DNA of 10,155 nucleotides from a virus. Below, piece after piece: positions 6,001 through 9,000 of this stretch. The DNA is taken from UHGV virus genome UHGV-0264998. The stretch is one strand, 5' to 3'. The position numbers are program-made. Every line of letters starts with the position of its first letter. The stretch's first letter is position 1.

Positions 6001-9000
6001 CATGTTCGGTAACAGGCATATGATTAACTCCAGAGAATCAGGGAGAGCCTTTCGACTCAGAGGTATTTAGCGATGTACTGCCAGTTGCAGTTTTCAGGGC
6101 GGTAGAAGTAAGCAAGCTCATCAGGCGCAACATCCAGCGCCAGCGATGACCACAGCAGAAAAGCGCGGGCAGGTTCCCCATCGCGCCCGGCTCGTCCAAT
6201 CATCTGAACAAGATCAGGCAAATCATCGGGGACGTATGTCACGACAACGTTACGGATATCAGGAACATCAGCACCCAGCCCGAAGGCTTTAGTAGCAATA
6301 AGAATCGCGCCCGGCGTAGAGGCAAACCACTCAGCGTTTGCGTGGCGTTCCTCGTTGCTCAGGTGCATCGTCTTCGAGTGATATGACCGCGCCCGGTCGC
6401 CCAAGAGTTTCAGGTACGCCCGCAACGTTTTAAGGTCATTGACGAGAATAAGCGTCTTCTCTTCTTTCGGCAGAGCCTCGACCAGACCAATAGCCGCTCG
6501 GAAACGTTCGCGGCACTGTCTGACTGGCGTCAACTGGATATTCTCGCGAGCAACATCAGCGCGGAATGTTACGTAATCGCCACGGCAGCCAAGCGACTCC
6601 ATTAAACTGCGCTCATTTTCGCGTAGCAGCGTAGCCGTAAACACGCAGCGTTGAGCCGAAGGAAAGGCATTCTGTAGTGTGTGCTGCATTGCGTCGTAAG
6701 CTGGGCGGAAATCCCAGTCTTTGACCGTGTGTGCCTCATCGATAATAAAACGATCAACGCCATAAGCCATCAGCGCCGCGAGAACCTGACTCGACGGAAC
6801 CAGATGTTCAGGCGAAACGACTGCAACCCGGAACGCCCCGGCAGCCAGCCCCGCCAGTTGTTGCGCATTGCGGTGCCTCGGCAGCTTGTCACCAAATGCC
6901 ACAGCGTGAACGCCAGCCTCCCGCAACTGGCGGAGAATCTGACGCTTAAGGGTATTAGTAGGAACAACGATAACAGACAGGCCAACGCCAGCGCGGGATT
7001 CATAAATCAATGGGTAAGTGAAGGCAGCGCTTTTGCCATACCCAGTAGGCAGAACGGCAAGCACATCACTGCCACGGGAAAAGATCGCATCAGCAACAGA
7101 CAATTGCCCCGGCCTCCACTCCAGCCCATCAGGTGGCAGCAGGCTAACGCGTGCGTTTCGGTCACAGCGAGCCAGCGGGCGGAACTCATACGGCGTAGTA
7201 TTCAGTGGCGGCACAGACGGCGAAGCAGCCAAGCCGTTCGGGTCACAATGATGATTTGTACTATTAAATCTATCTTCGGTAGGCTTCGACTCTCCACACC
7301 AAAATTGACGAAACTCCCCTGAGTCTCCGTAGCGTTTGAAATCTGCGTTACGCATCGCTTCCAGTTTACTCATGCCCCTGTTAATGCGGCGCATGGTCTT
7401 CTCATCGCAAATCAGGAACTCGCGGCAGGCTTTGAGAAAAGCATTCTGTCCGGTTGTTGATTCCGGCACGGCGTGCTCTCGCGGTTTCAACGCGGCATCG
7501 TCTACGCGAACATCGGGAAAATCTGGCGGCAGCGGGTCAACATAACGAGCAGGCTTTTTATTTAGCCATTGCTCAATCTCAGCGCGTCGGCAGTGAATCG
7601 CGTCACCGGGCTGGATGACTTGCCGTAACCCCTTATCAGAACGCTGTTTTTGCTTTTTAGGCTGCACACCGTGTATCGTTCTCCACTCCCGCAAGGTCAT
7701 CGCGGAGCCATCTGCATTGTAATAAAACTCTTCGGTCTTTGTGTTGTATGCCGCCTTAACGGGTTTACGCTTTACGGGGCATATCTTGGAACGCCGAATA
7801 ACAATCCCGTCAGCGATCATTTGCTGTACATCTGCATTTGCGGTATTGAGCGGGCCAGCATTGGCAGCCTGCGCAAGCAAACGGCGTAGGTTCGTTGGCA
7901 TGGTGAAATCTCCAAAAATTAAGGTGAGTTAAGAATGGGGCGCAGGATGGAAGCGCCGAGAGTGTGGCAGCCTGTCCTTCTTAGTAGATGCTTTCATTGC
8001 ATTGGCGTCGATGATCCGTCTCCCCACAGTAGACACCTTTATTTGAACGATATTTAATCAGATCCATTGCAAGCCTTGCTCTATCTGACTTTACGGGTAA
8101 TTAGGTGATAACTTTTGGTAGGTTTGGCGGAACAATGGAATGGATGCGGTTAGTAGCGGCATTGTGTGTACCGTATCCCAATATAGTCACTTTCATCGGG
8201 TGGAATCCGGCAGGATGCCAGACGGCAGAACGTGAACGTAGTAGGGCAGGTAACAGACAATAGACCGTGACGGCGTACTATAGCTGGCAGTAGTACAGCA
8301 GGCAGTAAGACCAATGACCAACGGCTAAGACCTGAAAGGAAACGAACAAGAAAGATGATTGAATGCTACAGAAATGAATGAAGATGTTATGAAGAATACC
8401 GTACCGATATCAGGATAAGATTGAATAAAGTAAGAATACCGATACTGAGTACCGTCCCACTACACCTCCCCGCCGCGTTGCCTGCCACGGCAAGCACGGT
8501 TGCGTAGAGTGGCCGAGCATCAGCAGCGGGCAAAGACCGGGAATGAGCCAAAGGCGATGGAGCGGGCTGGAGCACAGCGAGAAGCGCAGCCAGTGGAGAG
8601 CGTGAAGCGATAACACTGATTAGGAGATGGGGATGTAGGGGAAGAACCCTTTTTTGTACATGTATTTAAAATGCAACTTTAAAGAGAGCGAAGCGCTCTT
8701 ACACTGCTTGGGATGAGAGAGTGAAGGGAGAGAAACCTTTATTGTACATGTACTAAAGATACATCTTTAAAACAGCTCAACCAAGTGATGCCACTCCGTC
8801 TCCTGTCTGGCTTTGAGACTGGACAACACAGCCTTTGATCCCTTCCCCTGCCCCATCCCTCGAATTGTTCAGTGATAAATCACATTCACAATCTGATCTC
8901 GATGTTCATCGTCTGGCACGGCTAAAGCCCCGCCATCTCTTCACATCGAGAGCCGCGAGTAAAACGAAAACACATTACAAATCATAGCATTACAACATGA

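Follow-up and report, generated by a model that had tools for sequence, protein, structure and literature searches.

The characterised phage satellites P4, PICI/SaPI, PLE and PICMI each encode their own replication protein. The P4 and PICI proteins combine a primase with a superfamily 3 (SF3) helicase, the PLE protein is a RepA_N initiator, and iterons lie adjacent to their genes. The known enterobacterial satellites (P4-like, PICI and cf-PICI) exploit temperate phages, and satellites of virulent phages are so far known only from Vibrio. Here, I analyzed a stretch of viral DNA of 10,155 nucleotides (UHGV virus genome UHGV-0264998; hereafter the window, meaning the whole stretch) that carries a gene for a RecQ-like helicase. 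It was found that this gene belongs to the core of a 14.8-kb integrative element, which looks like a satellite of virulent phages of the T7 superfamily. A preliminary description, made from the window sequence alone, had noted a RecQ-like core fused to an unrecognised N-terminal domain and had named the gene, as the first after a repeat region, a candidate for a replication initiator-helicase.

How does the helicase compare with the known replication proteins? Like P4 alpha, the Pri-Rep proteins of PICI/SaPI and RepA of PLE, it would serve a small integrative phage parasite, in whose core it is the sole NTPase or replication-type gene. It likewise adjoins the main cis-acting non-coding region and has a variable, putative specificity part. 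Unlike them, it has a superfamily 2 (SF2) motor of the RecQ type and lacks both a primase and conserved iterons. In herpesvirus UL9, too, an SF2 helicase is joined to a specificity domain of its own, and UL9 would be a precedent for an SF2 initiator helicase. The domain order of UL9 is the reverse, however, and the likeness is one of function only, origin binding being putative here.

The helicase gene has the following parts.

6057-7901, minus strand: helicase open reading frame (ORF) of 614 amino acids plus stop, uninterrupted, with an ATG start (ORF translation, Pfam and PDB matches)
7910-7913, minus strand: Shine-Dalgarno sequence GGAG, 8 nt before the ATG, conserved in relatives
6060-7121, minus strand: RecQ-family motor core, residues 261-614, with motifs 0, I, Ia, II (DEAH), the aromatic-rich loop and motifs III, V and VI

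Pfam assigns residues 264-428 to DEAD (E 9e-22) and residues 478-575 to Helicase_C (E 5e-14). Bacterial RecQ proteins give the top PDB sequence matches, WRN, RECQ1, BLM and RECQ5 come next, and all of them align residues ~261-588 of the query with the two RecA lobes only; residues 25-341 of PDB 1oyw correspond to residues 261-585 of the helicase (E 3e-30). A pairwise alignment with E. coli RecQ gave 29% identity over 348 residues (E 8e-35), for which the PDB matches serve as an independent check. The RecQ-specific motif 0 is WRPGQ (262-266), Walker A is PTGYGKS (285-291, with K290), motif II is DEAH (388-391), the aromatic-rich loop is DWDFRPAY (395-402), FTATL lies at 421-425, and motif VI is QMIGRAGRDG (566-575, including GRAGRDG at 569-575). 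These motifs are conserved in 30-34 of the 34 full-length family members, and the degeneracy that the preliminary description had named as a refuting outcome is absent. By its motif 0, Walker A, DExH, aromatic-rich loop and motif VI, the SF2 core belongs to the RecQ family.

Compared with E. coli RecQ (PDB 1oyw and 4tmu), the helicase is alike in both RecA lobes, in motif 0 (WRPGQ against FRPGQ in RecQ), in the DExH motif, in the aromatic-rich loop and in GRAGRDG of motif VI. Unlike RecQ, it lacks the zinc module, RQC and HRDC and has an orphan N-terminal extension of 260 residues, and unlike the housekeeping gene, its gene sits on a mobile element. The protein ends 39 residues past motif VI, at the first Cys of the would-be RecQ zinc module; C605 is the single Cys left in this end, whereas the zinc module of RecQ has four. 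Pfam found no match in the helicase to PF16124 and PF09382 (zinc/winged-helix, RQC) or to PF00570 (HRDC), in agreement with the tailless core first noted. The scores with NCBIfam TIGR00614 (145.6 against a cut-off of 219.8) and with the recQ equivalog (154.8 against 640) stay below the curated cut-offs. The closest helicases outside the family are only ~33% identical, and the nearest such RecQ-like proteins, P0103 and P0126, are encoded on short phage-like contigs whose gene context was uninformative. The alignments show a complete predicted RecQ-family ATPase/translocase core without the C-terminal DNA-handling domains of RecQ.

The unrecognised N-terminal region was also confirmed, with a size of about 260 residues. 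The homology and structure-prediction checks suggested earlier were run, and no well-characterised family emerged. Residues 1-260 match no family in Pfam, NCBIfam or PHROG, and residues 1-111 are not covered by a PADLOC family either. A profile of the N-terminal family found no match among the PDB sequences even at E<=10, tblastn found nothing similar encoded in 50,697 phage records, fold searches with this region matched no fold, and relaxed Pfam scans of its sub-modules gave noise only (DUF2761, E 0.05; TTRAP, E 0.08). Against 1.84 billion cluster representatives, the profile found 14 proteins, with only two full-length clusters, and a word-indexed search of 5.8 billion sequences found 93 clusters. 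The named hosts among the latter are all Enterobacterales (Escherichia, Enterobacter, Citrobacter, Cronobacter, Kosakonia and Klebsiella), and species-representative genomes extend the family to Kluyvera, Trabulsiella and Rosenbergiella. The profile searches recovered only the helicase family itself, always in Enterobacterales. An AlphaFold (AF2) model from an alignment of 41 sequences has a mean confidence score (pLDDT) of 61, acceptable only at residues ~25-80 and ~150-200 with low segments between, and a single-sequence model of the full protein has a mean of 33.

Is the N-terminal region a genuine part of the protein? It is real, functional coding sequence under purifying selection, with dN/dS values between relatives of 0.07-0.3 in every segment of the helicase. 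The zinc-binding and primase-like functions once considered for it fared worse. CPVKRK, HCRRAE and HHCDPNG are lost in divergent members, and the listed motifs are gone from P0016, P0088 and P0089. C165 is the only near-invariant Cys and no His is even near-invariant; thus, lacking a conserved set of Cys/His ligands, a zinc-binding domain is unsupported. A primase of the TOPRIM or AEP type gave no signal in Pfam, NCBIfam, PHROGs, the PDB profile search or the fold searches, and the N-terminus has no conserved acidic catalytic motif of the primase type.

Alignments and the AF2 model divide the N-terminal region into two modules, joined by a short linker, and a longer linker to the motor; the linkers appear to be disordered.

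7617-7901, minus strand: module A, residues 1-95, two beta-hairpins and a helix, confident only at residues ~25-80 (AF2)
7287-7529, minus strand: module B, residues ~125-205, a helical hairpin (AF2) of near-neutral charge
7122-7286, minus strand: Pro-rich linker, residues 206-260, pLDDT <50, with the highest dN/dS within the helicase

Most of the near-invariant N-terminal residues sit in module B (G151, N153, R160, L163, C165, R172 and G176). Module A is basic in all lineages (isoelectric point, pI, 9.1-10.4). The two modules diverge separately: between the window and the related locus L014, module A is 37% and module B 91% identical, and between the window and L021 the values are 94% and 79%. 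In the deepest pairs, the N-terminus is 32-34% identical against 52-56% for the motor core. Moreover, both modules occur alone. Directly upstream of the helicase, L012 encodes a 100-residue protein (9675-9977) that is 41% identical to module A, and L013 (9741-9992) and L002 (4753-5010) encode proteins of 83-85 residues that are 37-39% identical to module B; the free-standing copy of module A has a pI of 10.5. These paralogues may act as regulators, decoys or extra adaptors. From their separate divergence histories, stand-alone paralogues and difference in charge, and from the faster divergence of the N-terminus, the modules are shown to behave as independent, autonomous, fast-evolving units. 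Such a pattern would be expected for specificity or adaptor modules rather than for a catalytic domain.

Some copies of the gene are split. In L016 (1103-2947) and L017 (2504-4348), the TGG codon of W262 in motif 0 (codon 262 of the window gene, nt 7116-7118) has become TGA, and the stop divides the gene exactly at the border between N-terminus and motor. P0002, from an independent lineage, likewise ends at residue 261.

Matches to the window occur in 148 of 5426 complete E. coli genomes, nearly always once and in the chromosome, and no phage record matches it at the nucleotide level. In strain WP8-S17-ESBL-12, perfect direct repeats of 32 nt, which are the 3′ end of a tRNA-Leu gene, lie 14.8 kb apart and bound the element, with a tyrosine integrase at one end. 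A Logan contig of 14,774 nt begins and ends in the identical attachment (att) core. The following other genes of the element were annotated, in the window unless another locus is named.

9102-9788, minus strand: serine recombinase of the resolvase/invertase type (PF00239, E 5e-25; phrog_125)
5379-5585, minus strand: T7-type small-terminase-like (TerS-like) protein of 68 residues (PF11123, E 8e-6, with 26.3 bits just under the cut-off of 27.5)
1719-2759, minus strand: major capsid protein homologue (phrog_267, E 2e-70)
1193-1768, minus strand: HNH endonuclease (PF13392, E 1e-19; phrog_99)
56-484, minus strand: endonuclease VII-like protein (phrog_423, E 9e-16; PF02945, E 3e-6)
Window 9789-10155 and beyond; L001 29626-32594 and 19204-19848; L003 102-2431; L004 17731-19882: cargo hotspots

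The order is a serine recombinase, 1.1-2.6 kb of mostly non-coding DNA, the helicase, about eight small ORFs including the TerS-like gene, the capsid gene, often an HNH endonuclease gene, and then endonuclease VII and the integrase. It is identical in all of the 15 complete loci, which come from E. coli, Enterobacter, Kosakonia, Kluyvera and Trabulsiella and occupy at least two integration sites, and the incomplete loci L002, L016 and L026 have the same order as far as they reach. The helicase is the first gene of a co-directional core operon and, as had been noticed at the outset, the first after a long non-coding region. Two variable cargo hotspots lie beside attL and attR of the otherwise syntenic elements, and they carry restriction-modification systems of the Eco29kI or NmeDI type, DUF3800, Rap1a and others. 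Since the gene order is fixed and the cargo is confined to the ends, the helicase is a core gene and not cargo.

The capsid protein (331-346 residues across the loci) points to the phage partner. Its closest phage relative is that of Escherichia phage glasur (Autographiviridae, Bonnellvirus, 42.5 kb) with 57% identity, and the next are those of other phiKMV-like podophages at ~44% or below. Among the Bonnellvirus capsids, identities are 92-100% (table in PMC8402661). The TerS-like gene has a weak match to the TerS gene of glasur. Portal, TerL and tail genes were not found in the element. The diverged capsid, the shortened TerS-like protein and the size of about one third of a phage genome suggest small-capsid formation and redirected packaging.

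The non-coding region next to the helicase is 1.2 kb long and AT-richer. A short-word comparison of this region with glasur revealed two phage-like features.

8179-8196, minus strand: promoter-like motif ATGAAAGTGACTATATTG, an 18/18 match to a Bonnellvirus intergenic motif
8194-8305, minus strand: homology to the Bonnellvirus terminal non-coding region, 72% over 118 nt to glasur 42331-42448

The motif occurs once in the window against a chance expectation of 0.01 for the 18/18 match, and it is directed at the helicase, ~280 nt upstream of the ATG. In glasur, one copy lies in the intergenic gap preceding gene 18, another immediately follows the RNA-polymerase gene, and a third stands reversed in the terminal non-coding region; phage megetsur has it at the identical three syntenic sites. 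An extra copy in glasur (21114-21127) overlaps the glasur_37 start; it is not shared by megetsur and probably reflects coding sequence by chance. The core (G)ACTATAG is the -7/+1 core of the T7 and SP6 promoters, and the motif resembles a T7/SP6-like promoter for a single-subunit RNA polymerase of the helper type. In favour of helper-dependent expression, no sigma-70-like promoter was predicted in 7700-10155. The motif in the window starts with ATG and opens a 31-codon ORF (8101-8196, minus strand; MKVTILG...), and glasur_37 starts with MKVTIMG...; this likeness is probably incidental, yet it is a caveat for the promoter reading. The terminal-region motif faces backwards, toward the last gene (L009, glasur, 7-19, minus strand; L027, megetsur, 40542-40554, minus strand), and could belong to an origin or a packaging signal.

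The terminal-region homology adjoins the upstream side of the motif. Its core (8201-8251) is 84% identical over 51 nt, and the glasur counterpart lies in the last 177 nt of the record. In the window, this similarity of 72-84% was detected only in the pairwise comparison with glasur, and blastn of the upstream region against the phage collection gave no match. The copy is clearer in sister elements (L001, L003 and others, with helicases 95-98% identical), which have a segment of 165-225 nt at the equivalent place. This segment is 88% identical to glasur and 93-96.5% to megetsur, usur, HHU8, BHUENT7, RZ4 and others, matching at least 15 Bonnellvirus phages in all. It spans the right end of the glasur record joined to the left end, and in megetsur it lies inside the 1.5 kb of non-coding DNA that separate the last gene from the first. 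In the sister elements, a forward promoter-like motif precedes the helicase ATG by 136 nt, and L012 has three. The forward motif upstream of the helicase and the terminal-region segment are each present in 9 of 18 loci. In the divergent lineages L014 and L013, the sequences upstream have no convincing helper match, and the loci without motif or segment presumably match unsampled helpers. The matching phages infect E. coli, Enterobacter, Cronobacter, Kosakonia and Pantoea, a host range that overlaps with that of the element. Loci with the window type of module A have the Bonnellvirus-like cis segment in 9 of 11 cases and those with other types in 0 of 7 (Fisher's exact test, ~0.001, calculated by hand on loci that are related to each other).

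Repeats are also present in this non-coding region.

8596-8771, no strand: tandem duplication of an 88-nt unit, two copies with 72% identity, each with the palindrome TGTACATGTAC(A)

The 88-nt unit is single-copy in the close relatives L001 and L003 (95-97% identical). Therefore, the repeat region of the preliminary description is a recent window-specific duplication and probably not an iteron array. Different AT-rich repeats occupy this place in other lineages: GGTTATAAATA occurs five times in L002, and the repeats of L012 and L014 are inverted. Such lineage-specific repeats leave room for lineage-specific protein binding sites. As far as sequence comparison can tell, a mimic of the promoter and terminal region of the helper describes the upstream region better than iterons do.

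The most economical description of the element is that it looks like a satellite of virulent phages of the Bonnellvirus type. This description is based on its att-bounded size (with its integrase and att repeats, ~0.35 of the helper genome), the lone diverged capsid gene, the TerS-like gene, the promoter motif, the copy of the terminal region and the lack of portal, TerL and tail genes. It would depend on the helper for induction, replication and packaging. Like cf-PICI, PLE of ICP1 and PICMI, it is integrative and about one third of the helper genome in size (Bonnellvirus genomes have ~42.1-42.5 kb), and it has helper-like structural and packaging genes, cis sites of the helper type and defence cargo at hotspots. 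Unlike them, it encodes only a capsid and a TerS-like protein instead of a full head module, its putative helper is a virulent T7-superfamily podophage, its signature gene is RecQ-like, and its induction appears to run via a promoter for the helper RNA polymerase.

What would the helicase do in such a satellite? A role as replication initiator-helicase, as originally proposed, is plausible. I tentatively favour a somewhat wider reading, to which I would give slightly less than an even chance: a helper-induced helicase for replication or DNA processing of the satellite, whose N-terminal modules are specificity adaptors. The core operon would stay silent until the single-subunit RNA polymerase of an infecting helper becomes available. 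Then the helicase would be made, and modules A and B, in place of RQC and HRDC, may dock on the cis region of the satellite, on a replisome protein of the helper, or on both; module A probably touches nucleic acid and module B protein. The motor would unwind satellite DNA at the docking site, for example at an R-loop from the phage promoter, and the helper replisome would amplify the excised element into concatemers that the helper terminase can package. A bolder version, which I consider doubtful, is that the helicase is the origin-specific initiator and motor of an unrecognised class of satellites, in which modules, promoter and terminus mimic form a 'helper-specificity cassette'. Satellite replication would thereby be tied directly to the moment at which the helper RNA polymerase arrives.

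Several points weigh against a helper-induced replication helicase with adaptor modules. The N-terminus has no recognisable DNA-binding fold in the AF2 models or the fold searches, and conserved iterons near the helicase were not found across the lineages compared. No RecQ-family helicase is known to be a bacterial replication initiator, and a T7-type origin, consisting of a promoter served by the helper replisome, requires no helicase or initiator from the element. No published experimental mapping of Bonnellvirus promoters was found. The association of module A type with the cis segment can be explained by linkage because the two are only a few hundred nt apart and the loci share ancestry. 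Nonsense, frameshifted or truncated copies of the helicase are frequent in databases; therefore, the gene seems to be dispensable while the element is integrated. These broken copies could also mean that the gene is a mere passenger, left over from a cellular recQ paralogue and decaying without a function, a reading I regard as barely credible. It is already largely refuted by the apparent selection on all segments and by the synteny, which is strict across genera; in addition, the motifs are kept in nearly all members and even the nearest helicases outside the family are distant. The lack of iterons would suit a branch-processing or recombination helicase, as T4 UvsW or RecG/RecQ, which does not initiate replication but migrates or unwinds R-loops and branched intermediates and, together with endonuclease VII, makes and tidies concatemers for packaging. 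Endonuclease VII and the HNH nuclease share the operon with the helicase; it is general knowledge that RecQ-family cores act on forks, D-loops and junctions and that T7-like packaging needs branch-free concatemers. I nevertheless consider this role unlikely, as the helicase and endonuclease VII genes are 5.5 kb apart and diverge independently, the WH/RQC domain used by RecQ enzymes on branched DNA is missing, and a housekeeping-type role leaves the lineage-specific N-terminal modules unexplained.

The name DpdF came up in the defence-system search. PADLOC model PDLC02858, named DpdF, matches residues 112-614 end to end with 909 bits, and the PsyrT model matches the helicase core (E 2e-40). A RecQ-like core is common to DpdF (of Dpd 7-deazaguanine restriction), PsyrT (of PsyrTA) and the helicase. 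The protein might then be an interference or defence effector that strips the replisome or RNA polymerase of helper or rival phages or senses phage DNA; satellites are generally known to interfere with their helpers, and fast-evolving N-terminal modules with free-standing paralogues would fit an arms race. However, unlike DpdF and PsyrT, the helicase has no dpdA-K or psyrA neighbours and is a core gene of a capsid-encoding element. No dpd gene was found in the window, L001, L003-L007 or L012-L014, and PADLOC matched none of the neighbours, so that a PsyrA partner is absent; these neighbours are small ORFs conserved among the satellites. NF041063, the DpdF model curated in NCBIfam, gave 128.6 bits, far under the cut-off of 550. 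A Dpd system was thus rejected on gene context and the curated cut-off despite the strong PADLOC match. Most probably, PDLC02858 contains members of the helicase's own family, and the name DpdF is an artefact; the start of the model is an internal Met chosen by some gene calls. Recognisable defence cargo sits at the element ends, away from the syntenic core to which the helicase belongs, and an effector role seems quite unlikely. A classical initiator-helicase along the lines of the preliminary description, with a zinc-binding or primase-like N-terminus that binds upstream iterons, is in turn very improbable. The AT-richer non-coding region beside the gene and the basic module A would suit it, but the Cys and His residues are not conserved, the library and fold searches gave no primase, TOPRIM or AEP signal, and the repeat is absent as such even from relatives 95-97% identical.

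How new is this system? The helicase joins orphan N-terminal modules to a core of a known family, and the element looks like an apparently undescribed type, defined as a satellite of virulent T7-superfamily phages that encodes a capsid and a TerS-like protein, uses a promoter of the helper RNA polymerase and has a RecQ-like signature gene. No description of the element, of the helicase accession or of Autographiviridae satellites in Enterobacteriaceae was found in the literature, with most subscription journals outside the coverage. If the satellite reading is true, a parasite of virulent T7-like podophages resides in common strains of E. coli, Enterobacter and Citrobacter. Bonnellviruses and their relatives among the Autographiviridae are candidates for therapeutic use, and a resident element that is induced by their RNA polymerase and carries a copy of their terminal region and restriction-modification cargo would affect the outcome of phage therapy as well as gene transfer. 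As far as is known, it would also be the first satellite induced via a promoter of a single-subunit phage RNA polymerase, and the helicase, with its UL9-like logic, might be the first bacterial replication initiator of the RecQ/SF2 type. A RecQ motor without RQC and HRDC but with two orphan, swappable modules would be a natural experiment in SF2 retargeting, and the split and stand-alone variants are ready-made constructs for studying it.

The most conserved part of the non-coding region lies at some distance from the helicase.

8830-9098, no strand: conserved non-coding block of ~270 nt, directly after the recombinase stop codon

This block is 87-91% identical to those of L012, L001 and L003 despite diverged flanking genes, with identities down to 26% for the recombinase (in L012) and 71% for the helicase. 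It could serve as an origin or recombination site or encode a small RNA. An Rfam scan gave no match in the window, the intergenic region or the block. Identities vary independently from gene to gene across the element, which points to extensive modular recombination. Two unrelated types of serine recombinase, 94-100% or 26-34% identical to that of the window (9102-9788), share one position, as the comparison with L012, L019, L020, L023 and L025 shows. HNH genes come and go, lying after the capsid gene (window 1193-1768) or upstream of the helicase (L002 3497-4736; L013 9238-9729), and they behave like mobile homing endonucleases inside the element. In a 2026 survey (PMC13612085), 0.8% of the Enterobacter cloacae prophages were placed in Autographiviridae, whose members are virulent phages. 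These calls may be members of the present island family that were misclassified through the capsid gene.

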